Assembly: GCF_964204865.1 (NCBI RefSeq) | Contig: NC_135257.1 | Location: 15,686,001 to 15,750,000 of the forward strand | Direction: 5' to 3' | Source: Styela clava | Lineage: Eukaryota | DNA: 64,000 nt | Shown: in pieces, positions 20,395-64,000 of the stretch | Layout: each line of letters begins with the position of its first letter | Numbering within the stretch: the first letter of the stretch is position 1 | Program-made: the position numbers and the translations under genes | The notes under the pieces: model-generated | Database searches by the model: none | What the model was told of the DNA's origin: nothing | What the model saw: only the letters and a program-made list of their open reading frames with translations

Positions 20395-22913
20395 ATGTTA
20401 TACTTAGAAGATTACGTTGAATTAATTGAGCACCTTCCGGTGGATGTGAGAGATAGATTTACTGATATGCGTGAAATGGATTTACAGGTACCGTGACGAA
20501 ACAGTAATGCATTTCCAATTTTCTTATGTTTATTCTGTCTATTAGTGCCACTCAAAAATGGCCACCGATTCAATAATTAATTTTTTCTATGCTGATATTT
20601 CCAGTGAAATATAACTTCTGGATTTTTATAGTAACAAAATGAGTAGTTGAACACTGCAATTTGGTACATTGATAAAGGAAATTTACAATAAAACGTATCG
20701 GAATATTATTTTTATTCAATCATATTCTATGGCATTGATCTATGTTTATTTTTCAAGCAGTTCGATTTATTGGCTCATGCATATTGTCGAAATAAAACTA
20801 TCCAGGCAGCCATATCCGTATTACAAAGTTGAGAGTGATCTTGACGGCTATTTTTTCTAATTCTTCAGGTTCAAAATACTGTAGATGATTTGAATGGAAG
20901 AGTTAAGTCATTATTTCGTGCATGCCTTGCGAAGAAAGGAAAGATTGATAATGCCGATGAAACCTTCGATGACATTCGAGCAACTTATCGCAAGGCATTG
21001 GATGACGCTGATGAGAAAGTAAATAACATCGAAACATAGTTATATTTTAATCTGTTTTCAATTTTGCATTTGGAAGTTGAGTATTCTACAATCAGAGATT
21101 ATTTTATCATTAAACTTTCACAAATTAAATTATATTTACTGTTTTCACAAATGGGTTTCATTTTTTGTTTAATATAACATAAATTTAGGTACAATTGGCA
21201 AATCAAATATATGATTTGGTGGACCGACATCTTCGCAAACTAGATCAGGAACTTGCAAAATTTAAGATGGAATTAGAAGCAGACAATGGAGGGATTACTG
21301 AAATTCTGGAAAGAAGATCATTGGAGCTGGATAACCATGTATCTCAAACTGGCCACTCGGTAAATTGCTACTTTCATTTCCTGTTGTCTCTGAATATAAC
21401 TTTGCGAATGAAATTTGAGAATAATAAATTGATAGATTCTTTGAACAGATGAACAAAATAAATTGATTGTCCAACTTTTATCTTGTAACATATTAATATT
21501 TTACTGAAAGTTTATATATATAAGTATATGGCATTAGGTATAATTTATTTTAAAAAACATTTGCAGAGTAGAAAACGGCTTGCACATGCCACCACAGTAG
21601 CTTCAAGTTCTGCTGCCATTTTGCCTGGAACATCAAATGGACCTGTGGATAAAAAATCGAGATTAGATGGTGCTTTTGATTTGTTGTATTCTCATTCCGA
21701 ATCGGCACCACCTTCGGTATTATCACCAGATTTCTCAACAATAACTTCAGGGAATGATGTAGAAAGAAGTAACAGTCGGCCTCCATCAAGAAATTCTACT
21801 ACGGGTTAGTTATATGGCTATTTTATTTTTGAATACGCAATTAATTTACAGTCCATGTCAATCATAGCTAGTGTTAAAATTTGTCAAGTTGCTGATTTCT
21901 GTAGCAAAAAGAAGAAATGGGGTCATGAAATGCATTTTGTGAATACCTAAAAAAGCAAGAGAACAGTGCTCGTATATATGGACATGAGTGTGAAATGACT
22001 AACATGGCTATAGCATTGTCCGCAAAATCAGGCCAAATGGTAAAAGAATTGCACTGTATTTCATATGAAGATGTGCCCATGATATATGAAACCAGCAGAA
22101 TTTGGAGTGAAATATTGGACTCCAAAGATTGTGCGAAATTATAATAGCCTTTCATCTACTTCCAACTTGAAGATATGTTCTCACAACAACTGCTCTGTGT
22201 CTGAAATTTAGTAATCAGTGTTGCATATGTGTTAGTTTGACATTGTTATGAGACTAGTTTGCTGTATACATCATATGAACTAAAATCTATTTTCAGGTAC
22301 CGGTCAATCTATCATTAGTGCTCTCCAGACTCCAGTTGCTACAGAGGGACAGTCAGTAAGGCATCCAGGAGGTTTGAAAACAAATAACATTGGAATTAAA
22401 CTGTCAGAAACTACTATCAAACAGGAGGATTTCCAACAAGGATTACCCCCAGATTTTGTTGATTGTAAATTGCCTCTTAGTGAGGACATGATGGATGAAG
22501 ACTCTTGCCATTCCACTCAGGATGGTCTATTAATGTCACCCACAGGTTCAAGACCATCTAGAACGAAAAAACAAACTTCACGTGCAGCTGCTTGGACTCA
22601 AGAGCGCATGCAGGCTGAGGCTAGGCGTGGTCATGCGCGAGAAAAAGATCATATTTCACCAAACAGCTCTATGGTTGAACTCGTCGGAGAAAGCAGTAAT
22701 GCTTCTTCTGATTGGACACTCGATCCTAATGAGCCGCGGTATTGCATCTGTAACCAAGTGTCGTATGGTGAAATGGTTGGGTGTGATAATAGTAAATGCA
22801 CAGTGGAATGGTTCCATTATGGCTGTGTTAATCTCACTGAAGCACCAAAAGGAAAGTGGTATTGTCCACAGTGCACTCAAACGATGAAAAGGCGAAATAA
22901 AAACAAACAATGA
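20395..22913 (+). CDS. ING3: Inhibitor of growth protein 3 (ING domain + C-terminal PHD), 5 coding exons, ~422 aa
   Basis: Exons 20395-20487, 20869-21018, 21189-21359, 21567-21804, 22297-22913, phase-consistent [19 protein letters not shown]...; [25 protein letters not shown]; [23 protein letters not shown]...WFHYGCV...[10 protein letters not shown]. Confidence 0.96.
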
Positions 22914-25276: not shown

Positions 25277-31568
<6,292 letters not shown>

Positions 31569-34500: not shown

Positions 34501-36441
34501 TCAGCAAAGTTATGAACGATGATCAAAGCGCCAAGAACTACTGGAAGTCTGGGACTATGAAAAAGTTGGGAATCATTGAGAATGAAGCTGACACCCACCT
34601 CAGACTATGCAGAACATTTACAAGAGTTGTGCTACATTGGTGTATTTAAATGAACTCGCATTGTACAAAATTGTATCTGTAGGAACATCATATAACAATT
34701 GATTTTTTGAAAATGACACAATCTACGTATCACACTAGAAATGCAACACAAAAAATCATTACTTAATGACATAATTTTACCTATGACCATTGCTGAGAGG
34801 CTGGAGTCATTGACTCAAGGTCCAACCAACTTGAAGGTCTAGTTTAACAAAAATAGAAATCCCACTACCTATTTGAGCCTTATAGATCTCAATATGCAAA
34901 TCAAAAAAAAAATGTTTTCAGGAGATGCAAATCTTTTAATAAATCAAATCTAAGCGAATAGTGCCCACAGGCTGTTGAAAGTATTCCGAAGAAAATTAAA
35001 TTGATCAAATGTGTGACAAAATTGAGTAATACACAAAATGGTAGTTTGCATACTTCAATATAAATTGGATAACCATCACTGAAAATAGGAATCGCACAAT
35101 ACCGCATCAATTAGATATGGACGTGTTTTGTACTAAGTATACTAAATCAGTTCTAAAATGGACAGACTGTGGGAATAACAGATCTGAATAATCACAGAAG
35201 GCATTAATATATTTGAATCAAAATGAGAAAATTGGCAGTACTTAATCACAATATTACAAGGCGACACTTGATGACTCTACAGAAAGATTTGGAATAAATG
35301 AACCTTGTAGTAAAACAAAACCATCTAGCTATAAACCACGCTACCACTGCAGTCGCTCAGGCAGTTTCTGTGTCCATTTGTTAAAGAGGGCTGGTTTATT
35401 AAAGGAGGAGGTAAACTTTCATGCAAATTATTAAACGATTTGGAACCATTGGCTACCCTTATCTCTATAAGTTGCTTGATGTATATATAACTAAATTATA
35501 TAGCAGAGAAAATCAGCAACTCGATGGCTGTCAAAGGTATTATTTCCTCATAGCAAATGACTATTATCACACAGACTTCTTGTAAGTCATATCCTAAGTA
35601 TAAAGTACAAAATAAAAAGGTAAAATAACATTGGAAAGATATTAATTGTAAAATTATTAAACTGGCTCAACCAACAATATAACGATTTAAAAACACTGAA
35701 ATTTGCGGAGAGTTGAATTGACAGGAACCCACGAGGTTAGCAAACTTTAGATACCCATGCTAAGCGAAAAGAATGATTAGGGCAAATTTTGTTACCCGAA
35801 AACAATGTACCGAAAGTCAATTAATTATACGGTCATGATAATCTTAAAAGTGGTCCAAGCAGAGATGTGGAGTCAGACTTTGGCATGTTTTTTTATTGAC
35901 AATGGAGTTGGTGACATATTTCGAACTCCCAAAAACCTTGAATTCTCCAAAATCAAAATTACAGACTTTTAATGGTGTTAACCGAATTCAAATTTTCCAA
36001 CAAAAACTCTTAAGCATCAAGTTTCTCAAGCATTTCCGGAAAGCAATTAAAAGAGGCTAACATATTCCAAATTTTTTGTTATTAAATTTTATTTTTCGAG
36101 TTCAGAGTTGACGTTGAACTCAAAATTTTCTCTAACCTGGAGTCAGTAATCGGGTTATCTTTCAAATGACTCAGAATATGTATTCTGATGTAAATAGCCC
36201 TAAATCCAAGGCAGTATTAAATTGAGTAAACCAAAAAACTATTTTCACATGATAGATTATTTGAGCAAAATATATGAACTGAGTGAGAATTGCGTGAGTT
36301 GTCTGTTACGTTACTCGGCTTTATGTCGCCTTCGATATTATATTGACACAAATATTTGATATCAAACATACCGGTAATGCAATTAGTCTAATCAACTAAT
36401 AACTGTTCTTCACATTAGGATTTACAAATTGAAAATTGCTT

Positions 36442-39400
36442 TTAATTATCATTTGGGTTTGCAAATATTTTCAGCCTTTTTGTTAATCTTACGGAATGAC
36501 GGAAATTATCAAGAAAACAGCGGCAAAAAGCAGATCTTAATTTTGTGGCTTGTTTCCACACGAACGAATCTTTTCCGTTATACATTTCCGCATTATCCAA
36601 TAAAAGCATGACGTCATCCAGAAGTTGGTCAGGTGTATATGTTTGTGGCACAACTGGTCGGGTCGCGCTTCGTGTTCGAGAGTTACTCGGTCTTTCGGCA
36701 CTTCCATTGGCTTTCTCAATTTTGTCTTTAATATCTGTTATACTAATTGGATTCTCTACAATTTCGTAATAATCTGGAACATCTTCTTCTTCTACTCGAT
36801 ATCTGAAGGAAAAATATGGGAGCATTAGTTTGATTTCTATATATCTAGGATAGGATTTTCATATTTATTCTGAGGTAAACTAGAGTCCATAAGGCGGCTT
36901 AATCATATTACACAGTCCATGAGGGTGGTTCACATAACTGCTGGTCAGTGACGGCTTCGTCCACCATCAAGTCCATGCATCTGAAAACAAATAACTGGCT
37001 TAACTAATCCCATACCCGACATGAGGCCGTGATTACCATATATGCGTAAGCTGTATTATCAACTTTCCTCTCCCCTGGGATAAATATCTAAATCCTATCT
37101 TGTTTGGTACCGGCAATTAACCAGTGTTTGTTTCAGATACATGGAAGGTGAAGGAAACCGTAACCGACTAGCTACATGATGACAAGCATTTTCCTAACGC
37201 CAAGCACAATGCACCAACAGTCATTAGCTTGTGACATTGCTTTGACCAACATAAATAATTTCATTACTTGAATAAATTAGAGCATTTGTATTGTAGAAGA
37301 CGATTGATCACTGCTGAACATTTCTCAAGATCTTCGTTTTCATCTTCCTCTCCTTCACTCGCTTCATCTAAGCTTCCTTCTTCCTCCTCAACTTCACTCT
37401 CCTCTTCTTCATCATTCTCCTCTTCTTGAGATTCAGAATCCTCCTCTTCTTCTTCCTCATCATCATCATCACTCGATTCCTCAATCTTTTTACGCTGTAC
37501 TTTTCTTCTTGAGCGTCGAGTAGCGACAACTTTAAAATAAACAATTATGATAATAAAAGAAAAAAATTCAAACCATAACAAGACGTTACTCCAGCACCCT
37601 TGAAAATTAGTCCAAAACTAAAAAAGATGGGAATTCAGGGTTTTTGTTGAATTAACAAAGCTAAGACACACGAAACTTCGCGATTGAACATTTACTATGG
37701 AAATAAACAAGCTATACTTGAAAAGACATCTACCAGCACAAATTTTTACATAAAAATATATGTCATGAAAAATTACATTACTATATTCATTTTCAAAGTG
37801 GTTGAAATGTGATTTTGAAGCTAACCTGTTTCTTCTTCTTCCGCTTCTTCACTCGAGTCTTGACTTCTCTTACGTTTACCGATATTTCTTTTGGATCTAC
37901 GAGTTCCCGTTCCTAAAATGAAGGGGATTTCATTCATCCATATATAAGTCACATAATGATTTCTGAAAACACTATTTCATTTGTGAGTAATTCAATATAT
38001 AAAATTATTTTTGTTATAAATCAACAATTGATAACCAATGACATTGTTACAAACCATCAGACTCGAAAATAATTAATAAATATAACCTGTATTTGACAAG
38101 CAATCTCAAACAAATATTTTCATTTTTCCTGGATTCAGAATAAAAAACAATTTCAATCCAATAGTATATATCATTCGCAAGCCTTAAATTAAAAATTAGA
38201 GGGTATTTCCGTAGTGTGTGTACCAGGTTGAGGTTAGGCCATAATTTTATTCAGAGTTTCCTTATTTTAGCTCTATTACGAGTTCGGGGACTGTTTGTGT
38301 TAGCCAAGTGAATATACCCCCTGCCCATAGGCTTTCATCCCTTTACATAACTTGATGAAAAGTAGGCGAACATAATTAGTTACCTCTGTATTGGTACACA
38401 CACTTCTGGAGCGACAATTAGAAAACTAGAATTTGCAGTAGCCACACTTCTACCAGACCAAATAAATACCAATGTTGAAGAACAGTACAAGTCACCGATT
38501 GCCATTATGAAATCTAATATCTAAATGATATTACCTTCATCTTCACTTGAGTCTTCTGTCTTGTTTCGTTTCAAATATCTTCTTGATCTACTGCTGCTCT
38601 TGATTACTGTAAAAGTGATTATGAATACGAGTGTGAAATTCAAATTCAATAATAACAAGCCAAACAAAATAGAAAATTTAAGAAATAACTATCAAGAGTA
38701 TTTGTTTCGTAAAAAATTTACTTGCAATCAATGTCTACTATATTCAGGCCTATGCCAAACGAAAAACGTATAATGTTATAATTCTGACTCTGTATAAGGC
38801 GTCTGCATTTGTCATATTGTTTTTGACATGAATTGAGTTTGAGCCAAATTTAGAATTTGTTGTCGAAGTTAGAATTTCAGAATTCTTATGATGGAACTCA
38901 AAATCTTGAAAGAAACTAATAAATATCATATCATAAGGCAAGTATTTGTGGTGAGTTGAAAATGAAAGTTGATTTTAAATGGCTTGGATTTTAGAGTCTA
39001 TCCCCCGTAAAATCCTGCTTGATAGACTGTTTGTTTAGGAATGGGAAAAAGCTTTGCAACCTTCTTCCTCCTCTTCTTCTTCATCTTCCTCCTCATCCTC
39101 TTCTTCTTCTTGAGATTCTTGAACCATTTCCGCATAATTTTTTATGCGAGAAGATGATCTTGATGATTTTCTATAAATTATAAGAATTATCGAGTAAAGA
39201 ATATGAAAAGTAAACGAAATAAACGAACTCATGGTTCTATGTTACAAACTGTGAAAAAAATCTTACGGTCTGACATATTTGTACATTTCCCACATCACAC
39301 TGGAATGTAGAATGGTCAAAAGAAAAGATAATCTGGAATATTGGGAAGCCCCTTGAACCGCTTTCATCCATTTTTCCCTTCGTAAATCTGCTTTTGCCTA

Positions 39401-42400
39401 AAAACGAAGTTGATTTTGTATTACTTATACAACAGTTTTTCGCGCCCATCGCTACAAACAAAGGTGAGGTAGCGAAGATGAGATTCGAATGTGGATCCAT
39501 ATACAAGGCCTTGCTTGGAGCAGAAGTCATCAATAAACTGACATTAATAGTTGATCATAATTTTTGCACAATTGCACAATGAAAGTATAAAAAATTTGTT
39601 TATTCAAACAATTCATTTTAAATTCTAATATTCAATGTAAAATTCGAAATCCAATTGAAGTTAATTTGCCTAAATTCGACATTATTATAAAATTTTCTCA
39701 CTTACAATTTTTTTTGGATTTTCAAATTTTTCTTTTTCTTCATAAGGCAATAATTCTTCTCTTGACTGATTTTTCTTGGTTGTGATACCGCTCATATATT
39801 CACGGAAATACCTGAAAAAAAATTAAAATTGATATCATGAAGATATTATCTTATAGGGATGAGAGTAAAAATGTCCAATTTCTCAAAGATGTCCAATACA
39901 AATCAAATATTCGAACCGATTCAAAATTACTAATTACATTTGATATTTTAAATTCTTGATTTTAGGAACAATCAGAAATAGTTTCATTTGAAATTTTATT
40001 TTGAGATATTGAAGACTTGGAAGTCTCACAATATTGCCAAAAAAAATGTATTTATTTAAATTCTTAAACTGCACAAAACAAAACAAATCAAATCACTGAT
40101 ATAAATATACTTGATATTTCATATTTGAAATATTTATTACAAAATGTATTCGGAATAGTATATTATTCGATTTTGACCTTCCCTGTAACATTCATTTCTA
40201 AACTATTGTTAAACTTTATATAAAGCACATTTAAAATGAGAATAACAGAAACAAAACTATTAAGTAGCAAAAACAGTCAAATTTTACAGTAAATCAAAAA
40301 GGCCAACAAAGTTCAATCGAAGATTTTGGTGAAAAAACTATTTTTGACTTCACGAAATATATATATATATATATAAAGAAATTCAAGTTGTTATATTGTC
40401 CAACAGACAGTGATATTCGAGATTAGAATGTCAACTTGTTCCTGCAACAGCATTTCATACAAAGGACAAGGAGGACCCTTAAATGTACCAATTCAAAGAT
40501 ATCCAAAAGAAATCGAATATTCAAATTTATTATATTCAATATAGGAAAAATTTAGAACATTGTTATTGAAAACATAGGCATTTTGAGCAGTCAGACAAGT
40601 GACCTACAATATCTCAACTGGTAACAAACAACATAGAGAAAACACAATGACCTTTATATTCACCGGTACGTCAATTTCAGATATGATCAACATGATCATA
40701 ATACTGATTTATGTAATTTTTCATGTGAACTTGCCACCAATTTAGAATGTATTCAAATTCAATATTACTTATTTGAAAATATCTTATCAGAATGTATTCA
40801 GAATAGTAAAATCATTGGTTTTGGGTAGCCCTGTGTACCATTTAATTTTAATATAATATATACATAATACATTTATAATTTACATTTTTGCAGTAAAATT
40901 TTTTTAAAAACAGAACGTGTTACAAACAAACCTCATGTCAATAGCATTGAAAATATCAATCATCAATGTACTGAATTCAGATATATCTTGAGCACTTTCA
41001 ACACGAGCAATGAATATGTCTGATTCCTCCTGAACAGTTGAAAATTGAGAAAATTTGAGAATAAACAAAATTCAAAACGAATGCATACACTTTGACGTCA
41101 ATAAAATTAAATGTATTAGTTACTTGTTTAATACCTATTTGATTTCGGGTTTTTCTGGCCGAACTTTCATACTTGAAGCCAAAAAAATTATATTTTAATA
41201 CCAACGTTATATTGTTACCTCAATATTAGATAATCCTCCTCTAGTTAAATCATTGATTATTGTGTTCAAACGCTTTTGTAGAGACTTTTTACAATCTTCT
41301 TCTGCATCTTTGACAGTTAACGATTTTCTGGTGACTACAGTTGGTGTTATTTCTTTTTCTTCCACAACTGGTGGTTTGGGTAAGTTTTCTTCGTATTTTG
41401 CGATAGATCTGAGTATAAAAATTAAGTTGATAGATCAGTCAACGGCAACAACAGGGCTACGTCCATGTGAATAATTAATTACAGTCATATACTTTTCCAG
41501 ATAAAAATTATACGACGACAGAACATGATTTTAGTCAACATCATATGAAAAGGAATCTTGAATGTCAGAATTTTTGAAATCTTGTGATGCTCACATGAAT
41601 ACAGTCAGTCAACCAAGGGTGGCGAGCTGAATAAAAATAACGTTAAAATGGTCAAGTGGTTAAATTGTTGGACCTACTATGTTGGCAAACCTGAAACATT
41701 CCGTTGCTCTGCACCTGCTCGTACACAGCCGTATTAAAAGTGAAAATATAGAAACAGTGTATAAAAAACTCTATTTCATTTATATTACAAAACGCTATAC
41801 ATCTCCACCTAATAATATGGTTATATTTCTTCTCCAATGATTTCTTCAGCTGATGTTCTCGAATTCCCTCTGAACAAAGACTTTTAATCAGCTCATCGAG
41901 TTTTTCTTTGGTATCCACGACAAACCAAAGGTTTTGACCAACATGAGGAATAGATGTTTCACTAGGTCCTGCAAAAAAAATGTAGATTATAAAATTCATG
42001 AAATATGACATGAGAGATTGCATATGAATCTGATCTCAAATCAAAAGCAGAAATTGGAATACTTAGTACGAATATTTGAGAATGAAATTATTTCAAATGT
42101 CATAAATTCAAATGCACTGAGCATTACTTGTGTCTGTCTCTATAATATACCATAAAAATATACCTGAATCATTTGTAATGTCCATTTCATCATCTTTTAT
42201 ATCTTTCGCTTCTAGAAATCACAGAAATAGATTTTATTATTCGGGAAGTAAATAGTATAATTTTTGAAAACTAGAATCTCATAGCATGGCCTAATTTCTA
42301 AAAGCTGGAGAGCCAATCAAATCATCGTTCATCATATGAATCTTTTTATATTTGCAAATTCTAAATGATTTAATATACAATTGTGAACTGTATATTTATT

Positions 42401-45400
42401 GTATTTCCGGAAACTAGCATTTTCTCAGAAGGTGCTCAGCCACTGTTAATCAATAAAATTAGGGTCGATTACGCATAACTCACTTGTGCAATAGTGGATG
42501 TAATCTTGAATCCATCCTTTCTCAACATACAAGCCTGGAGTATTGTCAGAAAACAACCAGTATCTGAAGAAAAAAATGATCAACAAAATAAGAATCGAGA
42601 ATATCGGTCAGTGACCGAGGCTTATCGATCGAAAGTTAGGGGATTCCCCAAAACAGCGCTCTTACTCCATAGTGACACCTTGTGTCCCATCACTTATTAA
42701 TTAATAACTCGCTAATTATACGACATAATTCATCCAAAATCAATAGGCTTCTGGTACGACATATGATGAATGCACATGCAATCTGGAGCAGATTCAATCT
42801 CGCTTTCGTGACATATCGCATGCATCTAACAGACAAACAAACAGACAAATACCTATCAACGTTGATAAGTAATTATTAAAATTTTATCTGCTAATATTAA
42901 AATATTAGGAAGTTTATTTTCATGGGCACTTTACTCAAGTAAGGTAAGTCTATTGATAAGCAGCCTTTTATGTTCGAAGAAAATGAAATTTTCTCGTCTG
43001 CGTATTCACTACCTAATTTAATCAGGACCTGAATAAGATTACTCAACTCGAGTTAGATTTACATTCATTAAAATCTCAAACTGACCTAGAGAATGACTTT
43101 AACCAGTCATAAAGTCGATTCATTGTTTGAGGATTTCTGCCCAGCACTGGCTGAAAGAGCACAGGTTCTGAACCCAAGACCTTTTATAAGGGGATGCATA
43201 TGTAACAACATCTCCATAATAAATAAACATTATACTCAAGATGGGAAAAACATGTGCAAGACCTTGCTTACCTAAGACACAAATGTGTGACAAGTATATA
43301 TTGCCACTATATGTATAATAACTAAGCAAATATACTTCACCTGTTATGATTCCTATCTGTTCCGAGAGGATCAAGACGAGATGATTTTGTGGCCGCAATT
43401 TCAGCATCACGAAGTTGTTTGTGCACCTTGTTATGTTCTGCTTCTTTTTCTTGTTCTTCAAATAATCTTTGTCTTTCTTCTTCCCATTTAATTCTCTCCT
43501 TTTCTTCTTGTTCTCTCCTTTCTGCAGCCTCTATCCTTCTTCGCTTCACCCTGAAGGAATAGAATTATTTAAATACAAAACATGACGCTCCAGAAGTATG
43601 TGTACCGATATGGAGGTAACTAATTTTGTTCGCCTATTTCACATCAAGTTGTGTAAAGGGACTGAAACCTATGGGCCGGGGGTGTATTCACTTGGCTAAC
43701 AAAGACAGTCCCCACTCGTAATAGAACTAAAATAAGGAAAATCAGAAACTTGGTACTACGGGAGTACCCAAAGCGTATGCAAGAGCTTCATCCCAAACAA
43801 GACCCTGTACTTTTTAACTATGTGCAGATCTATTATTTTTGAAATAACCAGAATCTACCCAATTTATTACACACTGGGTGTAACCGAACCATTTTGATGA
43901 ATATCAGGAAATTAGTTAATAGAGATTTTGAATGTCATCCAACCTGCTAATCAAATCTTGACTATTTCCGCTTTTACTATTTTCCGATTCAAGTGTTACC
44001 TTCTCTGGAGTTACAGCATCTGTACGTGAGCTCTGAAAATATATGTTAGTGCTGTATATCAATAATGTATTTGGAAATTTTCTGCGTTGCCTGAATAGTG
44101 AACCTTCATTATAGAAATGAAAATTCATTAAAGCTTTAAACGAGAATATCGATCAGAGACCGAACACTTATCGAACGAAAGTTAGGGGATCCCCAAAACA
44201 GTGCTCTTACTCCATAGTGACACCTTGTGGCCCATCACTAATTAATTAATAACTTGCTAATCATACGACATAATTCGCCCAAAATTAATAGGCTTCTGGT
44301 CCGAGATATGATGAATGCACATGAAAAATCTGGAGCAGATTCAATCTCGTTTTCGTGAGATATCGCGTGCATCTAACAGACAGACAGACAAATACCTATC
44401 AACATACTTACCGATTAGAATCGATAAGTAACAAAATCAGAACTAAAGTCTTTGGCTAAAATCATGAAACTTGTTGTTAGACTGTAAATAAAACATGCAG
44501 ACATGTCTCTCCCAGACAATCAGACAAGTAGAAAATGAGAATGCCGTTTTTGAAATAACCAAGATCATCGAAATATCTAACGTAGCCCAAAAAATTTCAA
44601 TACATTCTTTGTCAGATATTTGCGGACACAAATCCTTTCAGACATAAGTCTGATATATCGAAACTGCAACCTCACAACAGTGTTTCCCGACCTATGGTCG
44701 CGACCCAAAACTGGGCTGCCTGCCAATTTTCTTGGGGCGCTTATTATTTCAACAAAAACCTAATTACTAATTTTTTTTTTCTAGTAAATTTTTTTGTTTA
44801 TTTTATATTTGGTACTGAAGTGGTAAGTAAACTTTACGCAAAATTTATTTTTTTATATTAGTCATTAAGTTTGCGACCATAAAAGTACCACATACGGTTT
44901 AGTATTTGCACATGTCCTTGGGTCGCGAGATTTTACAAAATTTATTTAAAAAAAATTTGGTTCGCAAAAAAGGTTGGGAACAACTGCATTACAACAATCA
45001 AACCATGTAAAATTCATAGAACACTCGTACGTTTTAATAGAAACCTAAATAAAAAAATGTGGCTAAACACAAACCTCTTCCTCCATTTTCTGTTTCTTTT
45101 TCTCTTTTCTCAATTGTTTGTTTTCGCATCTCATTTTGTTTAATTTTTTCCAAGCATTGCGAAGTTTGTCCTTAGCTTCATCTCTGTAATTTTGAGCGGT
45201 GTATGTATTCAAAAATCGATAAGTGAGAGCACATAGAACTTCAAGCTGATCAGATGGTTCAAGTTCATACATTTCATTTTCGAGCAATCTTGAAAATACC
45301 TACGAGATGTAAAAGTTGATGTAAATTTATATAAAAACAAGAGTAATGATCAATATATGGACATGAACACAAAAGTAGGTCATGCAATTGATATAGTCAC

Positions 45401-48400
45401 TGCAATATTATCAATATTCCCTCAAAGTGTTACAAGAATTGTACTAAATGTCATATAAAGGTGTGCCCATGAATTTAAAAAAAAAGAGTGAAGTTTTGTT
45501 TGAAATATCAAGCCCTGATTTCAGAACAACATTTTATAAGCTTTACACTCCAAATAAGGCTTTATGCAAGCAGTCACCGCTAGATTAGGAGCAATCAGAT
45601 TTTTGAATTGCCAGAATCTTTCATTTATCGTCTTTCTTCTCTGGTAGTGAGAATTTGAAACTGTTTGGTAAGTTGTGAAAAGAGACGATGTTTCCAAAAA
45701 CCCAACAAAAATATAACCAAACAGTCTCTATATGCACTTCGTGTCCAATAAAAACATTTCACTGACAAAACAACAATCACCTCTTCACTGATTCCAGTGC
45801 CAGTAATTTTAGCTGAGTCATCTTCAACTTCATTACCTTCTTCTAAATCATCGTCAAGTTGCCGTAAACATATTCTGGCAAGTTCTGAACATACTTCTGC
45901 AGTGATGGGAACCTGGTATGGAGAAACACCCAAAATTATTTTTAAGAAATCCAGATAAGCCTTTTCAAGAAAAATCCTGCAAACTATACACCAGGTTTTA
46001 TGCTATGAACCCAAAAGCTTTTCATCAATTATCATAATATGTTTAAACAATTTTATTTTTCTCTTATAAAATTCCATTTATGTGAAAACCTCGTACCTTG
46101 TTGATATTGAAATCAAGTTCCTTGTAATCTCTAGCAATATCATCTGACAGTAATACATAAAGAATGTGTATCATGATGTGGCTGATCGAGTCGTATCTGA
46201 ATAACAAACAGTAGATAGTTGATTTTTAATTTAAGATCAGTCAAATTGTTCAAAATTTTGCTCTAACTGTGGTTCACAAATTTGCATGACCCATGACCCT
46301 CTTTTAAAGGATCTCTCTCTCTCTGGATAAAGCATTAGACCTAACATTGTAGGTTAAAAATCTTAGGTTCAAATCTCGATCATGTCGATCACCTTACTCA
46401 ATTTTACGGGCGTAGCCAGGAATTTTCAAAGTAGCGGTTCTGAAATTTCTAATTGCCAAGGAAAGCATGAATAAAAAAAGCATTTTTCTGTATCATACAC
46501 AGCAATTTTCCATAGCTTGCCTTAAATGCTTTTTGGACCCTTAAAGGATACATCCCTGGCCAAGATTACACTCCTTATTCATCGCCCATGTTCGGAACGA
46601 AAGACGTGAATATGAGACACATACAAAAAGTAATAATCATTCACAACTTCTCATCCTTACCCTTTCTTTCCAGCAGATAGAGCTTCTGCTAAGGCCCAAT
46701 GATTTGATAGTTTGACTTCTCGAGAAGAAGCAAAAAGAATTGATTTGTAGGAATTAAGAAACTCTGTCACCAATGCAATATCCCCAAACATGGTGTTGGG
46801 TAAATTTCCTGGTATCACGGCAGGTTCAAACATTGGTAGCGGCCTGGAAAAAGGATAAAGTTTAAAAAACTGGATAATATCAGAAAATGGTAATTTGATT
46901 TCTATAATTATCAATAATTTCAAAGTTAGAGCATTATATTATGTGTTCGACTCCTAAAGTCTGCAACTAAAAGACCTCAAGTTTAAATATCAATTATTCC
47001 AATTGGCAAGATCGCCCAGCAGTTGAAGCGTTAGACTTAATAATTGTGTTGGAATCACCTGTTACACATCTTGGGTTAAAATCCCACGCTCATTGTCTCA
47101 CCCAGGGTGTAATTAATTGGGTAGGCAATGCTGAATCGGCAAGATTCCGGTCCTAATAATCATATCTCTTCGCATATTGCTAGATATCAGTGTTTACTTG
47201 TACTTGGCCTTGTTTGAAGCAAAAGGAGGAAATAACAGTTGTATAAAGATGGGCGCTCCAGCCTCCAGACGTATGCACACCAATATGGAGGTAACTAATT
47301 TTGTTTGCCTACTTTACATCAAGTTGTGTAAAGGGACGGAAGCCTACGGGTAGAGGGTATGTATATTCACTTGGCTAACACAGACAGCCCTTGAACTAAA
47401 ATATAGAAAATCGGAATGAAATTGTGGACTTCCCTAACTTGGTACACACGACACACTATGGGAGTACATAAAAATGATTTCTTACTCAGCTTTTCCTTTT
47501 TCAACAATATCCATATCTTCAAATTTTTTATTCTTTTCCTCTCTCTCAGCTGCTCGAAATTGTTTTCTTTCTTCAATCGTCATGCTGTCCCACTTCTTTT
47601 TCCATTCCAACATTTCCCATTTCGATAAAATATCTTGCTTGACGAGTTCAGGAAGATTCTGTCTCTGCTTCTCCGTTAGCATTTTCGCGGCACTATAGAT
47701 ATAAACAGTAAAATAAATAATTTGCTTGTTTACAAGTAGACGAATACAGAGACGTTTAAAATAAATCAAATTTTCACAATAATATAAATCTTTTTATTTG
47801 AAAAAATCCTCCTTCGTTATGCTTGAACTAATTGAGCCAACCATATTGAAAAATATCAATTTTAGAATATGTCCGTAATACTAAATTATCAAATATGGCC
47901 CTCCCTGCATACATGATTGAATTTAGATACGAATATTCTTACTTAGTAGTACAAATAGCGGGGAATATATTTAAAAATTAACCTACTTGATTACAAGTTT
48001 TCTGTATTTGGCTAATGGAGATGTCTTCGCTCTCTTTAGTCGCAGCAACATGTAAACAATGGGAGGTTGTCTCGGAGCTCGCTTTTTGGCAGGAGAGCTT
48101 CCGAGTGCATGCGATTTCTTTGACGTCATCAACATTGTGCCACCTTTTTTCCTAGTAAGTTCAAGTAAAGTTGCTTGTCTTTTCTTTTTTGGACTTGTAT
48201 TTTTACGAGACGATGCTTTGCTCGCTGTTGCCGCTTTCAACAAGGATAAAGGCTTATCATCGTCTTCATCTGACATGTCAATATCTTTTGAAGATGATTT
48301 TTTAATCTTTTTTGTTGTAGTCTTTTCGCTATCTTTTTGTTTTCGCTTACTCCCTCCTTTTTCTTTATGTGTACTTTGTTTTTTACTCTCAGATTTAGGT

Positions 48401-51400
48401 GGAGTTGATGAAATATATTCCAATCCATTTGTTTTTACTATATGAGGAGAATCCCGAAATTTAACTTTAAAAATTGGGGCCACTTTAACAATTCGACTCG
48501 ATGAATTCGGATTATCTCCACTGTTTTCTGGTGAATTTAAATTTTTATGGTGCATGGTTGGTTTTTCATCGGAAGATGATTCCGTATGAGAAACGCCATT
48601 TGTAAGTGGTTGGTGTTGATAGTCAATTGAATCACAAGATTCAACAGAATATGTTGTTGCATTTATGAACTTCTTTTCTTCTTCCGCAGTTAATCTTCCA
48701 CTGAGATTGTACTTTTCGACCTTTATTTTTAAAATGGATATGGATGGATAATATCGAATTTATAGAATCTTCCGGTTAAAACGGCGAGTCAAGTTTGGCA
48801 TGTCAAAGTCAGAGATAAAGTCGAATTTTCAAACTGCCTGGAATTGGGAGTCGAAATTTTGAATTTTCTCAGAGTCGGGAGTCGAAGTTTCATACAGATT
48901 ATTTGACTACTACAAGCTTGTTAAATAGTCCACCCTTGAGATGGCCAACAAGCAGGAAATTGCACCACTGTCAAGTTGCATATTTCAACGACTCTGGTAT
49001 TATCTGGTTAAAATGCTCGGATTCGAGGTATACTGAATTGGAAAGTCAATGCCAAGCCCAGAAGAATGGGTCCCTTCAAACTATAGTCACTTCTTGCCTA
49101 GCTGTTTGTACAGAGACTTATTCAGAGCAGGAGATTACAAATATTTTGTATAGGTAGAAGATTATGAACACCATAAACTAAAAAAAATGATTCGCACCAT
49201 TGCTTTGTTAACGATCCAAATTTTTTGTTTTTTGTATTCATGTCCAATAGCATTAGATCGAATAAAAAGTTTGAGACAAAGTCTTGTCGGACGTTTGGTG
49301 ATGCTCCGTAATGTTTTCGTTGGAACTCCACGAACAATCTAAAATAAAATACGCTAATAGTTGAATTACTGCGTATACATGTTTCAAGCGTTAAATTGGC
49401 AGAGAAATGCTGCAATTTGAAAAAGAAAACAAACTATATCTCAATAAATTTGAATCGAAAAATGCTGACCGACTTATAATATCCCAACTCTAAGCTAAGA
49501 TGCGGATATTCATAAGTATACCTTGTTTTCGTTTGTCAACAAAATATCATATTTCATTCGGTTCATTTCTAGAGATTGACTCGATGAATCTTCCGATGAT
49601 GATTCCATTAATTTTTGACTGTGGTCTGGCGACTTTTCTAAAAAAGATATAAGATCTTAAAATTTTACCAACACTTATTCTGCCTGAGACAAGCTTTCAC
49701 AACAGATTTGTGAGAGACAAGCAAGGTGAGACCATATTCCTTCTAAAATGTGGTTTCATTGTCTCAATGAAGTTTGCTCATATAGGCATAGATTCGTCTT
49801 ACCATTATTTGCATAGAAGTTAATTGCCATGACATTCACATTGTTAACAACTCGAGGATTATTTGCTAAATCATTTTTCAGTGGGCAAAGTAGCCAATTG
49901 GATAATTATGATGTAACAGCAGGTTGAAAGCCGGGTTCGAAATGTCCACCACTTCACCTTGGGCAGGGTGTAATGAATAATGTAGGCAACGGCAAACCGA
50001 ATAATTCTGGTCCTTCCTAACTACGGAAGTCCCTTACCCAGCAGTGACAGGTTGTACAAATCCTTGATTGGAATGAAAGCATATGTCATATAGAAAAAGC
50101 TACCAATATGTTATGTAATTCAGTGTTATATTGGCAGGCAAATATTAAAAAAACTGGAATCAAGATAAAACAAAGTGATCAAAAATAAAGCATCACAAAA
50201 CTAAAAAGTAAAAGTTCAAGGTTCTTTTAGCAGCATTGAAAATGAACTTATTAGTCTGATAGATTGATAAGATAAAATTTATTTATTTATTTTTTCAAAT
50301 CAAATTTGTAGAAGACACTGAAAAACATGAAACATAAGGACATGGTTTATAAATTATCAACTTGACTGAAGATAATACAAAATTGGTAAGAGAAAAATTA
50401 AACAGTGAAAAAGTAAGATATCATTCCATATTTCCAATAAGTCTAATAAATATCTTGGTAGAATTCCAATGTTACCAACGTCACAAAATCTTGACAAAAT
50501 TAACCTTATTAATAACAAAGCATGACCTGTTTTATTAAACATATCTGTTATGAGAGACTGTTTGGATGAATTGTTTTCCTTATCACTAGAAGGTGAACCA
50601 GTACCAGCTGTATTTGAAACATCCTCGTATACTTTGACCACTTTTGCCTCATGTTTCTTTCCAGCCATGGCCTGAAAAATATACGTTACAGATTGAATAG
50701 CCTGTGGTTCCAACATTGTGATTTCAAAGATGTGGTGATAGGCCTCTTAGGTCAAAGTTTAGCACTCACAGGTGTTAATACGGTATTCTTTCAGAAAGAG
50801 TTATGTGATATCATTTGTTATATTCCGATATCAAAAATGAAAAATTCCTGAATTTCCACTATTATCCATTTGAAAGAAAATGTCGAAATATCGATAACTA
50901 GCCCAGTTAGTTATTGATTGGCAAATGGCAACAAAAATTGTACCATAGCATTTTTGATCAAAAATAGAAATGGTATCAGAGTAAGTATAACTAATTGTGG
51001 ATTACAGCATTGTTTCATTCTAATTAGAATCCATATGGATTGAGGATGAAATCATTCGCTTATTTTCGTTATTTCGTATGATGCTTTGATCGATAATTCA
51101 AAAGGTACAGAGTTTTTAATCGAGGTGTCTTACGGTCTGATGCGACTCTGGTAGTAGTTGCCTTCGTGATTGACCGATTTTGATTTTTGAGTTTTTAATT
51201 TGTTTATTAATAAAGAAAATACAATTTCTTACTTCAAATACAACTGTTTCATTGACGAACAATTGAGATCGAAGCAATTTGTAAGATTTATTGACAATTT
51301 TATCAAGAACATCAGATGAATGATGAGTTATTCGCAGGACGTCCTCTTCGTAGATATCAGAAAATGACTTTGACAACCTGGGAGTGAAAAGGAAGATTAA

Positions 51401-52550
51401 ACCAACCAATAAGCCTAAATTGGTATTGCGAATTGTTAAAAAATAGGTTCTAACTTTATTAACTGTTATAAAATGGTACTGGGACAGTGTCTATATGACA
51501 TGTTTTTTTGTCTCTACAGTTATAATCGGTGCAGTAAAACCAAAGTAGCCTGTGTCACATTTTTTAGAAATGGAATTCATTCATCTCCTGTCATTAAGGA
51601 CCTGGGACCATCTTTTGGTCTGTGTTTCGAAGATGTACATTTTTTAGTTTAAATTTCAGGTACTCCCTTAGCTGTACAAATTTGAATATTACAAAATGCG
51701 TTTTTCTCGAAACCTTAAAATGTGACGATATCTCGTTTTGCTTAAAGAAGTTGAACTGTGACGGAACAAAAACATTAGACCAAATCTGATCTAAAAATAA
51801 ATGAATTCAATACATTTCTCTTGTGCTTTTTTCGGATTCTAAAGCCTCTTTATGAGTGAGATTGATATGTCCTGTGCATTGACAAGTCCATAGTTTTCTG
51901 TTATATAACTGAACTCTGTCATCATATTGTCTGAATTTATGACGTAATTAGGGAAAATTCAATCAAAACAAGAAGTTGAATACTCATGAACACAAAGAAA
52001 TTCCAAACCTATCAGAGATGATGTTACGCGAGAAGCTCTATATTTGCATATAATGCAAGGCTATCGTAGTGAAATAAAGAATACTTAAAAATGTGTTTGA
52101 TCACAAAGTAGACCCATTCCTTGCTGCTCTTTAGAAATCCTCTTTTTCACATGTACATATTATTTCCAGTAATTTTACTCATTGCATAAAAACATTTGAC
52201 AAAAGATTTTACAATACAGAAATAGCAATATCAGAATATTCAGATATGATAAATTCAGATAATAGTATTACTGTAATAAATTTTGCCGAAACTGGAAGTT
52301 TTTGAATTGAATACTTGAAAATCATAATTCATTTAGTCATTGTTTATGAAATTCAATAGCATTTCTGTGCACACATAAATATTTAGTTTATTACAGTATT
52401 ATAATATTTTGCTAATGGAATAATTTGAAAAGGATACTCTTTGGATGTGAAGAATTCTCCTGTATGTGGAATTGTATAGGTTTCTGCTGCAGTGTCCAAT
52501 TCCACATTTTCAACTGGACCATTGAAAATATGTCTGCCAAACAATGGCAT
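36442..52550 (-). CDS. BAZ1B: BAZ1B/WSTF (WAC, DDT, WHIM/WSD, bromodomain; no PHD found), roughly 26 coding exons
   Basis: ATG at 52550: MPLFGR...YTIPHTGEFF, then WTCQCTGHINLTHKEA (WAC), LPNTMFGDIALVTEFL (DDT), LGTDRNHNR|YW, SEGIREHQLK, and bromodomain PDYYEIVENP...NAEMYN. Checked exons include 52550-52438, 51930-51814, 51377-51233, 39811-39706, 39397-39267, 39170-39061 and 36802-36442. Some internal boundaries are approximate. Confidence 0.93.
36917..37099 (+). mobile_element. 5'-truncated, diverged copy of the tRNA-derived SINE
   Basis: gggtggttcacataactgctggtc...taatcccatacccgac...ctttcctctcccctgggataaatatctaaatcctatc matches the 3' half of the SINE at 52679-53027. Confidence 0.85.
38201..38415 (-). 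mobile_element. ~200-bp interspersed MITE-like repeat, copy A
   Basis: Reverse complement of 43584-43769 and 47251-47467; short imperfect GGG(C/T)..TCC terminal inverted repeats. Confidence 0.8.
42594..42872 (-). mobile_element. DINE-1/Helentron-like non-autonomous element (HINE), copy 1
   Basis: Homologous to 44139-44431; stem-loop TCGGTCA-G-TGACCGA (42604-42618); subterminal inverted CTTATC / GATAAG; (CAGA/CAAA)n microsatellite. Confidence 0.72.
43584..43769 (+). mobile_element. ~200-bp MITE-like repeat, copy B
   Basis: gacgctccagaagtatgtgtaccgatatggaggtaactaattttgttcgcc...actacgggagtaccc, shared with copies A and C. Confidence 0.8.
44139..44431 (-). mobile_element. DINE-1/Helentron-like non-autonomous element (HINE), copy 2
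   Basis: ACTTATCGA (44166) is inverted with TCGATAAGT (44421); adjacent hairpin TACTTACCGAT..ATCGATAAGTA; (CAGA)n; flanked by AA; no TSD. Confidence 0.75.
44678..44986. mobile_element. hAT MITE (family shared with 57383-57767)
   Basis: CAGTGTTTCCCGACCT / AGGTTGGGAACAACTG; degenerate 8-bp TSD CCTCACAA / CATTACAA. Confidence 0.78.
47251..47467 (+). mobile_element. ~200-bp MITE-like repeat, copy C
   Basis: gggcgctcca...caatatggaggtaactaattttgtttgcctactttacatcaagttgtgtaaaggga...actatgggagtac. Confidence 0.8.
51931..52437 (-). other. U12-type (minor spliceosome) GT-AG intron of BAZ1B
   Basis: 5' splice site GTATCCTTTT; branch-point-like TTCCCTAAT (51955-51947) close to the 3' AG; no strong polypyrimidine tract; the reading frame joins correctly (phase 2). 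Confidence 0.85.
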
Positions 52551-52678
52551 GACTGGCAAGCTGTTGTGAACCAATACTATCCCAAAATTAAATTATATAC
52601 TTATTCAGTTACCGGTATTCAACCATACATATTAATGCTATATCTGTATGAGCAGCAAAAACAGATGTTATAATTACT

Positions 52679-53027
52679 GGATAGGATAGGATAGGATTTA
52701 CATATTTATCCCGGGGGAGAGGAAAGCCGATAAGACGGCTTATCCATATGGCGAACCACGGCCTCTCGTCCGGTTACCATTCCAAGTCGGGTATGGGATT
52801 AATTTTACTGTATTGTTTGTTTTCGGAAGCCTGGACTTGGTGGTGGAGGAAGCCGTAACCGACCAGCGGTTACGTGAACCACCCAACGACGGCGAGGAGT
52901 CCAGCAATCCTCTCGCACATAACCATCCCTGCATGGGATTCGAACCTGCGAGCCCACGCAGAGTAATTAGAGGTGCGGTGGCGAGCGTATTCCTAACGCT
53001 TAGCCCGTTGAGCCACACCGCCGCGCC
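52679..53027 (-). mobile_element. Full-length tRNA-derived SINE
   Basis: Head GGCGCGGCGGTGTGGCTCAACGGG (A box) ... GGTTCGAATCCC (B box), ~250-nt body and (CCTAT)n tail. Diverged copies at 36917-37099 and a tail fragment near 60405-60440. Confidence 0.9.
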
Positions 53028-57134: not shown

Positions 57135-60100
57135 ATGGATGAATCGGTTTACATGAATGAAGAAATTCATGAAGATGATCTCATTGATATGATGGATGGC
57201 AGTTATGATGTTACAAGACAGGAAGAAGCTGACACTCCGCCACCAAATCAGTGAGGATAGCACTTCTGACTCACACTTGAAACATGTTCATTCTAAACAG
57301 TTTTCTAATTATTTTTGTGAGGAACATAACTCTCTGAATAGAGAACATGACATGAATAGAGTTCGTGCATGATTATCTAAACCAGTGTTTCCCAACCTTT
57401 GGGTGGCGACCCGATATTGTTTCTTGAATTGCTTGTTTCTTCATTAAAATCCTAAAAGTTACTAATTTTATTTTATATTTGGATGTTGCTCAATAGTAAT
57501 TATAATTGTATAGTATAGTCTATGTGGGAAGTATCACAGTTTAAAACTTGGCAGCATTTATTTTGCTCAAGTAAAGTCACAGCTGATGGCAAACTTTTAA
57601 ACTTCGCACATTGAAATGAACGCTATGTAAAAATGTTTGTTTCAGATTGGTCATTTATTTTGCGACCATAAAAGTATTACAGTACATACGGCCATTTAGT
57701 AATTGAGCATATCTTTGGGTCGTGAGATTTTACAAAATGAATCTTGAAAAATGGTTGGGAAACACTGCTCTAACAAAAAGGGACAATTCCGCATATATTT
57801 AGTTTGTCTTGAGATATCTATACAGTGTGATTAGTTTCTTACTGGCAATGGTATTTTGAATGAATTTCTGTGAAACATGAATTGAATGGAAGAAAAATAA
57901 TTTGTTATTACTATATTACTACAATATAGTAAACTAATCAATTTTTTAATTAGGACTATTTAATTACGGTACTCTGCAAATTCAGTGATTATTTGTAATT
58001 TTCCAATTTATTAGGTGATATCTATATATAAAAAACTCCTAAAGTAGCTATTGAGTTATTCAAATGAGATTGGCTATTAAGTGTCTTCTGTTATTTCAAT
58101 TCCTTGTGTTTAAGCTTTCTATAGTTTAAATACTTATTTTGATAAACTTGCAGATGGTATCATGGTAAACTTGATAGAAATATGGCGGAGGAAAGACTGG
58201 TGGAAGCCGGATTACAAGGTGGATATCTTGTGAGAGAAAGTGATAGAAGACCTGGTTCCTATGTTTTATCTTTTTTCAGTATTACTGGAATCACTCATTT
58301 TAGGTATGCTGTTTATTGTTGTTACTTATTAATTAAGATAATCATAAATTATTGTTTGTTAATTATATATTACAGTTGCATTGCAAGCATTGTTTAATAT
58401 GTTTGAATATGTTAATTTATCAAATAAAAAATTAGAAAATTTTTGTTTGGTTAAAAAATGACTGTAAAATTTAATATATCCTTTATGAGCGAATTTCTGA
58501 AAGAAAAAGAAAAATATAATATAAGACTTAGGTTGAACAATGTGAGATATCTAACTCTTTGAAAACATCTAGTTATGCCTATGTTTACAACTCCACATTT
58601 ACTCTTTTTAAAATATACCAAGATCAAAATTATCTTTAAAGTTAAACACCATTGTAGAGATATTATAAAAATACCATAATAATTCTTAGATTGGAAGTTT
58701 AACCTTTATTTTATCTTGGTAGGATACTTGCGGTGTGTGGTGATTTCTACATTGGCGGGCGACAGTTTGATTCATTATCACAGCTTATTGCCTATTATTC
58801 ATTCAAGTCTTGCTTGTTGCAGGTAATTTTATTTATAATTATTAATATTTTAGTAGTTTTGTTAATTTGCTGTTAATTTCGCTTTGTGGATGTGGTGAAT
58901 TGTTTAAAAATATTGGAAATTCTTTGGCATTGTTGTCTTAGTAAAGTAATCTTTAGGTAAATTCGAAAGACTGGTAATTGAAACTTTCGGGGAAGCCAGC
59001 ATTAAAATGCATCCCCATATCACTTTAGGTAAGTGAATTGGAAATCTTTAAAAAAATTTCTACTAGTTGGGAAGAGGAATATAACTCAGTTCCTAGTACT
59101 CTGTTTTCTACTATTTATTAAATAGGAATCGCAGGATATGAGCTTCCGATTCATTCTCTGCATGAATTTCTAAAACTTTTTTCTAGGATGAAATGTTGGA
59201 AGCTCCTGTCGCACCACCAGAACCTGTTGATGATAGGAAAAGAGTAAAAGCTATTTTACCTTATCAAGCTATACCCGGCACTGACAACGATGAATTATCG
59301 TAAGATCTTAAGTCAACTATATCATATAATACTTTCCTGATATATCTGCTTAGCCTTAATAACTGTCAAATGCACATCCATTGGGTCTTGGATTTAGCTC
59401 AGACCACTTTTATGTTTTATTATTCTAGGGAATAATTTTAATTTGCATAACATAGCTCTTTTCTCCAAACTTTTGAAAATTGATGTGATTTACCTTCATC
59501 TATAATTTTCTGCAGTCTCTTGTTGAAATAATAAATCTACAAATAATTTTTTTTACATCTCACGCCACTACCAAATCCATTACTGATATATTCTATGTGA
59601 GAATCTTGTAGAAAACATCTGCTGAAGCTTTTTAACGACTTTTGACATTTTTTGTTTTTTTCAAATAATGCAGATTTGAAAAGAATGATGTTTTCATTGT
59701 ACAAAATGAAATGGGCGGGGAATGGATATGGGTAACATCACTAAGAACAAATGAAAGCGGTTGCGTTTTCAAAGGTAAGTCCTTAAAAAAAATTTCTGAA
59801 TACCCTGTTGGGAACACTTTTAAGCTGAATAGCGAATTGTAACTTACTGGCCTTATTGAATGACCAAATAAACACTTCATGCTGCCGAAGACAATCAGCG
59901 ATTATACTAAATCAACCATGTGAAAACCAATCCCTTGTTAGCGCCTCAAAACATTTTTAAAAGATGGGTCGTCCCCTAAAGCACCCATACAGCTGCATCA
60001 CTCCCCCAATAATTTTGTCTCAAATTTAATATTCTAATGAAATGCAAACTGTCAATAACTAAGTGTCATTATTTAACTGATTATATGGTATGTATACGAT

Positions 60101-63100: not shown

Positions 63101-63291
63101 CTACTTTTTCTTGATCTAGGTGTAGGAAAACGTGGATATGAGACTAAAAAATGGAAGCACATGTTTTTCGTATTAGATGGTCAAAAACAACATCTTTATT
63201 ATTTTGAACATGACAAGAAAACAAAACCTAAAGGATTGGTGGATTTGAGCTACGGAGCAGTTTACCCCATACATGACAGCTACTTTGGAAG
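57135..63291 (+). CDS. RASA1: Ras GTPase-activating protein 1 (p120GAP), 5' part: SH2-SH3-SH2-PH; continues beyond the window
   Basis: Exons 57135-57250, 58154-58303, 58723-58822, 59187-59299, 59674-59774, 60184-60285, 60952-61102, 62092-62291, 63120-63291, phase-consistent. PPNQWYHGKLDR...RESDRRPGSYVLSF; PVAPPEPVDDRKRVKAILPY; DPHEGKEWFH; TKPKGLVDLS...HDSYFGR. The start codon is tentative. Confidence 0.95.
57383..57767. mobile_element. hAT MITE (family shared with 44678-44986)
   Basis: CAGTGTTTCCCAACC / GGTTGGGAAACACTG; shared internal tgcgaccataaaagta...gagattttacaaaat. Confidence 0.82.
61539..61776. mobile_element. Degenerate pogo/Tigger-like MITE
   Basis: TA|CCGTATTTT start, repeated TAAGGCGCAC-like subterminal motifs, and a degenerate right end (aaattatgg|TA). 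Confidence 0.45.
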
Positions 63292-64000
63292 GTATGTTTT
63301 TGTTGCTTATAGTGATTTTTTGTTAGTGAAATTGTTTTACATTCGGATTTACTCTGGAGAACAAGGTTTTGTAAAAACCTTCGCAGATATATAAAGAGCT
63401 ATTATTTTTAGAAGGATGGTAAGAGGCCGATTTAGCTTCTAGTAGAATTGATAACTGTTTACATGATTCATTGCTTACTCTCTTGGTTAGGTTGTTGACG
63501 TTGGATTTAATATTATAGGATTATATATTGGAATATTAGTAATACATCAAGATACAAAATTCCCCACTCAAGAAGGACAAAATTACCCTTTAGGAAGAAA
63601 TTTTTCCCTGGTTAGAAAACATGGCACTCAGACATCATATTAGCTTGAATTTTAAATTTAATATTCGAATATTCATTTAAATTGAAAAGAGGGAACAATA
63701 AAAACAGAAATAGTATACCCTTGTAAGTTTGGGCTCAATATTGTATATTTGCAAATTGCAATGTATTGGACTATTGGTGTTGATGAGCTATTCTGAGCGC
63801 TTATATTAATGATATATCACAATGCTTCAAAAGTGAAAGTTTAATATTTTATCTGTTTTGAAATTTTGTGGGACCAATGCACAAAGTGCAATCTCGAATC
63901 ATAGATATTCTGTTGACTCAAGTCCTTCCAAAACTAGATTTTTGCTTATCAGTGGTGCATGAAAGGCATAAAAATGACTCATAAAAAACAGGCATTTTTA

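Follow-up and report, generated by a model that had tools for sequence, protein, structure and literature searches.

The window analysed here, a stretch of 64,000 nucleotides of Styela clava, carries on its minus strand what is very probably an expressed, single-copy ascidian ortholog of BAZ1B/WSTF without a PHD finger, the finger having likely been deleted once and the protein likely still serving as an ISWI (WICH-type) accessory subunit. Judged by sequence comparison, the gene descends from BAZ1B but departs from the canonical BAZ architecture (bromodomain adjacent to zinc finger), after which the family is named and in which a Cys4-His-Cys3 PHD stands before the bromodomain; the Styela protein has no such finger there.

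Gene model, transcript and DNA contigs at the locus

The frame of the gene model is open throughout its 26 coding exons (52550-36440, minus strand), and the 1453-aa product agrees with the stored protein P0001 in all 1453 residues and is identical at every residue to the database entry XP_039270961.2, which is listed as 'tyrosine-protein kinase BAZ1B-like' from Styela clava. Pfam recognized WAC, WSD and bromodomain in this protein and no PHD at E 0.1. DDT and WHIM1 are likewise without a Pfam match at that threshold, and both aligned gap-free to the cetacean ortholog with 26 of 65 and 14 of 50 residues identical, respectively; the WAKZ helix matched a helix profile, in which Styela BAZ1B was itself included, with an E value of 4e-15. 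The features of the locus are as follows.

36440..52550, minus strand: BAZ1B/WSTF ortholog, 26 coding exons, 1453 aa (gene model; identity to P0001)
51233..52550, minus strand: exons 1-3, WAC domain, aa 23-122 (Pfam PF10537, E 5e-26)
48166..48180, minus strand: RQATL, PCNA-binding-type motif, aa 440-444, counterpart of human KQMTL 436-440 (sequence comparison; PMC11615311, available part)
46828..46839, minus strand: LPMF, aa 575-578, corresponding to the SMARCA5-binding motif S5BM1 of human BAZ1B and lying directly ahead of the DDT region (sequence comparison; PMC11615311, available part)
41809..43550, minus strand: exons of the WSD (WHIM2/3) region, aa 874-977 (Pfam PF15613, E 3.6e-21)
39267..39397, minus strand: WAKZ end-helix exon (131 nt), with GASQYSR at aa 1129-1135 and S1134, L1139 and W1149; the PHD deletion starts immediately after it (gene model; RNA-like contig)
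39171..39266, minus strand: 96-nt phase-2 GT-AG intron near the site of the missing PHD (gene model; DNA contigs of two samples)
39061..39170, minus strand: exon with the post-PHD basic/NY motif (Ser/Arg stretch) and the first acidic tract (gene model, alignment)
38535..38606, minus strand: low-complexity linker exon, 72 nt (gene model; in the 269-nt sum given below)
37826..37912, minus strand: low-complexity linker exon, 87 nt (gene model; in the 269-nt sum)
37268..37529, minus strand: exon with the long acidic tract and the start of the bromodomain (RNA-like contig, gene model, Pfam)
36440..36802, minus strand: final exon, encoding the bromodomain with Asn1409 as anchor, Val1415 as gatekeeper and an inserted segment of about 20 aa (PF00439, E 1.9e-13; alignment)

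The bromodomain insert lies at 36620-36720 of the window (minus strand), and inserts of variable length are found here in most tunicate-type rows. High-copy repeats, seen as very high contig depth, occupy introns of the gene at about 38210-38413 and 40507-40840.

An earlier note on this DNA had described an exon at 39397-39267 spliced across a 96-nt intron (39266-39171) to an exon at 39170-39061, with both flanks of the finger present and no Cys-rich exon ahead of the bromodomain, and had taken this as a true absence of the PHD. The exons and the intron were recovered exactly so on the minus strand, with GT..AG borders and phase 2; the WAKZ helix stands on one side and the Ser/Arg-NY motif with its acidic tract on the other, and no Cys occurs between residues 1022 and 1316 of the 1453-aa protein. 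The absence was borne out by the gene model, by the length of a spliced contig, by DNA contigs and by PHD profile scans.

For the transcript across the helix-to-bromodomain stretch, four runs were mapped on 37000-42000, one of which (X2), having spliced contigs, was for that reason taken as RNA, none of the runs being recorded as such. In a spliced contig of this run (record 24), the exon at 39267-39396 was found at record positions 116-245 and the exon at 37268-37529 at positions 515-788, which leaves 269 nt between exon ends 39267 and 37529. The three predicted intervening exons (110, 72 and 87 nt) also sum to 269 nt, the PHD-free prediction, so that a finger, which takes up about 140 nt, could not be accommodated; the 39267-to-39170 splice joint is read from length in this one RNA-like contig, in which letters are skipped at repeats. 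A gap in the assembly at the 96-nt intron was checked with DNA contigs from two samples, and those of the first (X10 record 6 and X11 record 14; 38859-40335) and of the second (X12 record 21; 39132-39479) cross it essentially unchanged, each with at most one letter change and one gap. A profile built from 111 PHDs found no PHD-coding sequence in 36000-53000 (best E 3.4, on the wrong strand) and none in 36802-41809 with stops read through. As positive controls, the same profile recovered the BAZ1A PHD with an E value of 1.4e-11 and, with an E value of 0.0057, the PHD finger of an ING-family gene that lies 14 kb away in the window (21189-22910, plus strand). The absence of the PHD rests on these local scans, since a genome-wide PF00628 search missed the PHD of the window's ING gene.

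The scan of the window for other genes covered 91 of its 118 open frames, and showed a hAT transposase fragment (6327-6746, plus strand), a CALHM-family gene (8573-9871, plus strand), a ZNRF3/RNF43-type ectodomain exon (29050-29337, minus strand) and an SH2-SH2-PH gene (58146-63391, plus strand).

Orthology and breadth of the loss

The assignment to BAZ1B, also made by the earlier note, agrees with the tree, the AU test, the Pfam architecture and the presence of a distinct BAZ1A elsewhere in the genome. Only two WAC loci were found in the Styela genome, and the second (G000:C4:148421-196873) matches BAZ1A/ACF1 proteins end to end and has an intact PHD straight after the WAKZ helix. The tree was built from 35 rows chosen for length and spread, with 729 columns and the PHDs cut out, by a quick search without bootstrap. 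Styela BAZ1B and five other PHD-less rows formed one clade (SH-aLRT 100), which was sister to vertebrate BAZ1B (87) and nested in BAZ1B (99), and forcing the PHD-less rows into the BAZ1A clade was rejected (p-AU 0.002). The protein thus falls with BAZ1B in the tree and not with BAZ1A or BAZ2, which are separate genomic loci, and its best full-length database matches are named BAZ1B.

To follow the finger across the family, 207 proteins were compared, in 101 of which the WAKZ helix is present. PHD1 is absent at one shared boundary in all seven tunicate-type BAZ1B proteins (Styela, Phallusia, two Ciona entries, P0006, P0061 and P0074), the deletion amounting to about 47 aa, and it starts after the helix in 57 of the 59 other BAZ1B-class proteins that could be scored (five more were too short to score) and in 23 of 23 BAZ1A-class proteins. 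The two exceptions are P0110 of the sponge Oscarella and one of four Oratosquilla isoforms, in which PHD1 is skipped. In 6 of 6 tunicate-type rows, 16-19 aa separate the end of the helix from the downstream Tyr; among 12 outgroup rows the motif was found in seven, where the distance is 63-69 aa, and not in the other five. A short aromatic junction motif is common to the tunicate-type proteins; it aligned best to the His strand of the PHD, but its reading as a PHD vestige was rejected, as an equally good score was reached by 255 of 300 random tunicate windows.

Two explanations which would do away with the finding can be weighed on these data. That the assembly omits a PHD exon, or that the model skips one, is scarcely credible: the 39267-to-39170 joint is inferred from length in a single RNA-like run, but independent DNA contigs span the intron, the transcript length matches exactly, none of the introns holds PHD-coding DNA, and the identical deletion recurs in independent sequences from other species. 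That the gene is instead a divergent BAZ1A/ACF1, or a paralog in decay, would fit the WAC-DDT-WHIM-bromodomain layout, which BAZ1A shares, and yet is just as improbable: against it stand the tree and its AU test, the BAZ1B names of the top full-length matches, the separate intact BAZ1A on C4 and a frame that is open and spliced and has been conserved among species.

The loss is not particular to the Styela lineage, as the earlier note had supposed, for Phallusia, Ciona, P0006, P0061 and P0074 have the same deletion boundary; the absence itself stood, and absence across the clade, which that note had allowed would reduce the novelty, is what was found among the sampled orthologs. Two PHDs are present in the named amphioxus, hemichordate, crinoid, mollusc, nemertean and crustacean BAZ1B proteins (one annelid model stops inside the first PHD), and one in the named vertebrate proteins, so that the count of one missing finger holds relative to vertebrates but becomes two relative to the invertebrate outgroups. 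With mostly two PHDs in these outgroups, one in vertebrates and none in tunicates, the series runs from 2 to 1 to 0. On the simplest reading the second PHD would have been lost in or near the ancestor of vertebrates and tunicates and the first before the stolidobranch/phlebobranch split of ascidians, the loss having likely happened once, in the common ancestor of the sampled ascidians. This date is a minimum, as the named tunicates sampled belong to three genera and include no named appendicularian, thaliacean or aplousobranch; a metagenome scan for further tunicate loci gave 43 loci, which match only the bromodomain region.

The BAZ1B-class protein of the sponge Oscarella pearsei (P0110) is without any PHD and has a different junction, probably through an independent loss. 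It lies far from the tunicate clade in the tree, and an AU test on a sponge-plus-tunicate grouping gave p 0.059, which does not formally reject the grouping; the two losses were taken as independent on account of animal phylogeny and the differing junction sequence. The teleost isoforms P0009, P0030 and P0031 and the Oratosquilla protein P0083 have an insert within the PHD or skip PHD1.

Kept motifs, related systems and the reading of the loss

Function was transferred to the ascidian protein from human BAZ1B via motif conservation. According to the available part of PMC11615311, human BAZ1B requires LPAF 590-593 and EAQTFSR 1158-1164 for SMARCA5 binding and KQMTL 436-440 for PCNA binding, and by sequence comparison the Styela counterparts are LPMF 575-578 (S5BM1), GASQYSR 1129-1135 (S5BM2) and RQATL 440-444 (PCNA). 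The partner-binding motifs mapped in the human protein lie outside the deleted stretch and are all kept in Styela, where the motif set of a WICH subunit (S5BM1, S5BM2 and the PCNA motif) is present in the form of sequence counterparts. The only columns invariant in 33 BAZ1B proteins, S1134, L1139 and W1149 in Styela numbering, are all in the WAKZ helix, and GASQYSR sits in this helix, exactly where the deletion stops. The same part of PMC11615311 delimits the human SMARCA5-binding region as 1027-1214, which covers the first half of the PHD, and the PHD may thus contribute to SMARCA5 contact. Asn1409 and Val1415 of the Styela bromodomain align, via the cetacean ortholog, with human N1419 and V1425, and mutation of the Asn anchor or the Val gatekeeper impairs human BAZ1B (PMC5636791, available part). 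The human BAZ1B PHD, unlike that of BAZ1A, did not bind DNA in the one test consulted, from the same part of that source, which is consistent with its dispensability. An altered reading of chromatin by WICH, which the earlier note had proposed as a result of the loss, is hypothetical. Asp and Glu make up 25-43% of the helix-to-bromodomain linker in six tunicate-type rows and, with the PHD removed, 14-28% in 11 PHD-bearing rows (one row being unmeasurable), ranges that overlap; that the acidic linker binds histones is conjecture. A search of solved structures returned bromodomains only.

Vertebrate BAZ1B/WSTF, the subunit which forms WICH with SMARCA5/SNF2H and the sister clade in the tree, has the same order of WAC, DDT region, WSD, WAKZ helix and bromodomain and has in common with Styela the SMARCA5 and PCNA motifs, the bromodomain Asn anchor and the Val gatekeeper, whereas Styela has no PHD (a net of about 47 aa shorter there), a more acidic linker and the bromodomain insert. 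Cys338 of mammalian BAZ1B, which has a role in kinase activity, has no matching residue in Styela, nor in fish and invertebrates. The invertebrate proteins (amphioxus, hemichordate, crinoid, molluscs, nemertean, crustaceans) belong to the same ortholog group and have the same N-terminal and central architecture, but carry two PHDs between helix and bromodomain where Styela has none. Those of Phallusia mammillata and Ciona intestinalis have the deletion boundary, the aromatic junction motif and the WAC-WSD-bromodomain Pfam architecture of Styela, and no architectural difference was found even though they are only 35-38% identical to it. The fungal ISWI accessory subunits P0023 and P0025, of a type which we take to be Itc1 of ISW2, are PHD-less like Styela and have a WAC-DDT-WSD layout, but they also lack the bromodomain, are not placed as BAZ1B orthologs and were left out of the tree.

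Elsewhere in the Styela genome, the BAZ2 ortholog P0040 (MBD, DDT, WHIM1, WSD, bromodomain) is also without a PHD after the WAKZ helix, an observation from one species; amphioxus BAZ2 has two PHDs. No PHD remnant was found at the BAZ2 locus (G000:C3:4697773-4714427, minus strand; L010-L012), introns included. On C17, a WSD-linked gene that we label BPTF-like from its position keeps its PHDs. Regarding the 'tyrosine kinase' label, its substrate, Tyr142 of H2A.X, was not found in the Styela genome: the pattern of an H2A tail ending SQ[DE][YF]-stop gave one genome match (G000:C4:12384963-12385025, plus strand; L034), which ends SQDF and so, in contrast to the vertebrate WSTF system, has no Tyr142 equivalent. 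Nine loci of 94 matches were translated in this survey, in which a tail interrupted by an intron would be missed; the H2A.X-like gene itself contains an intron, and other H2A variants end SQA, SQSI and SQQ. A link between the Phe-ending H2A.X and the PHD loss was rejected, since mussel H2A.X also ends SQEF (PMC3256202, available part), yet the sampled molluscan BAZ1B proteins keep two PHDs. One ISWI/SMARCA5 gene was found, on C14 (L036:1218-4292, minus strand), as a single uninterrupted frame of 1024 aa, and it may be a retrocopy that replaced its parent gene.

These wider observations bear on an adaptive explanation, by which ascidians stripped the H3-tail readers from both BAZ1B and BAZ2, the acidic linker took over histone contact and WICH- and NoRC-type targeting was altered. 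We regard this as unlikely, though worth weighing: Styela BAZ2 has no PHD, and no remnant of one at its locus, where amphioxus BAZ2 has two PHDs, the tunicate-type rows have the more acidic linker, and the PHD of human BAZ2B binds unmodified H3K4 (PMC8567610, available part), but the BAZ2 loss is known from Styela only, BAZ1A and the BPTF-like gene on C17 retain PHDs, and the acidity ranges overlap. Moreover, PHD1 is gone in Oscarella and skipped in one of four Oratosquilla isoforms, which fits a general dispensability of PHD1. Its widest form, that tunicates rebuilt their ISWI remodellers, with the PHD gone from BAZ1B (WICH) and BAZ2 (NoRC-type), an acidic histone-binding tract instead in BAZ1B and no WSTF-H2A.X Tyr142 arm, is equally doubtful; if true, it would be a clade-wide natural knockout of reader and kinase functions.

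On the preferred reading of a PHD-less BAZ1B that still partners ISWI, the Styela protein would bind the one ISWI of its genome via LPMF and GASQYSR, would reach replication forks via RQATL, and would contact chromatin via WAC and the bromodomain, perhaps also via the enlarged acidic linker. A need for the WAKZ helix in ISWI binding would explain why the deletion stops exactly there, and the PHD would have become dispensable, the second finger having presumably already gone in or near the ancestor of vertebrates and tunicates. With the ISWI and PCNA motifs and the bromodomain residues kept and one ISWI gene found, a WICH-type complex is likely still formed, and the protein can likely do without the PHD in its central role as partner of ISWI, the motor that slides nucleosomes.

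Significance of a PHD-less BAZ1B

No report of a PHD-less tunicate BAZ1B was found in the full-text literature searched, though a domain-architecture figure in supplements or subscription literature may show the loss. The architecture can already be read from the Pfam annotation that is public for the proteins of Styela, Phallusia and Ciona, and the impact is limited by this and by the finding being one of domain architecture rather than of functional consequence. BAZ1B is a well-known chromatin gene, and the loss of its domain described here is real, ancient and clade-wide and has apparently drawn no comment in the literature searched; the same holds for the evolutionary history given by the 2-to-1-to-0 series and the parallel BAZ2 loss, which was not found there.

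Human BAZ1B is a Williams-syndrome gene, and its PHD has no shown ligand in the literature consulted. A chordate lineage which is without the PHD but retains the ISWI and PCNA motifs would therefore provide natural-deletion evidence that the finger is dispensable in core WICH function, and the boundary of the tunicate deletion may mark the minimal ISWI-binding module. Ciona is a tractable system in which the dispensability of the PHD could be tested.
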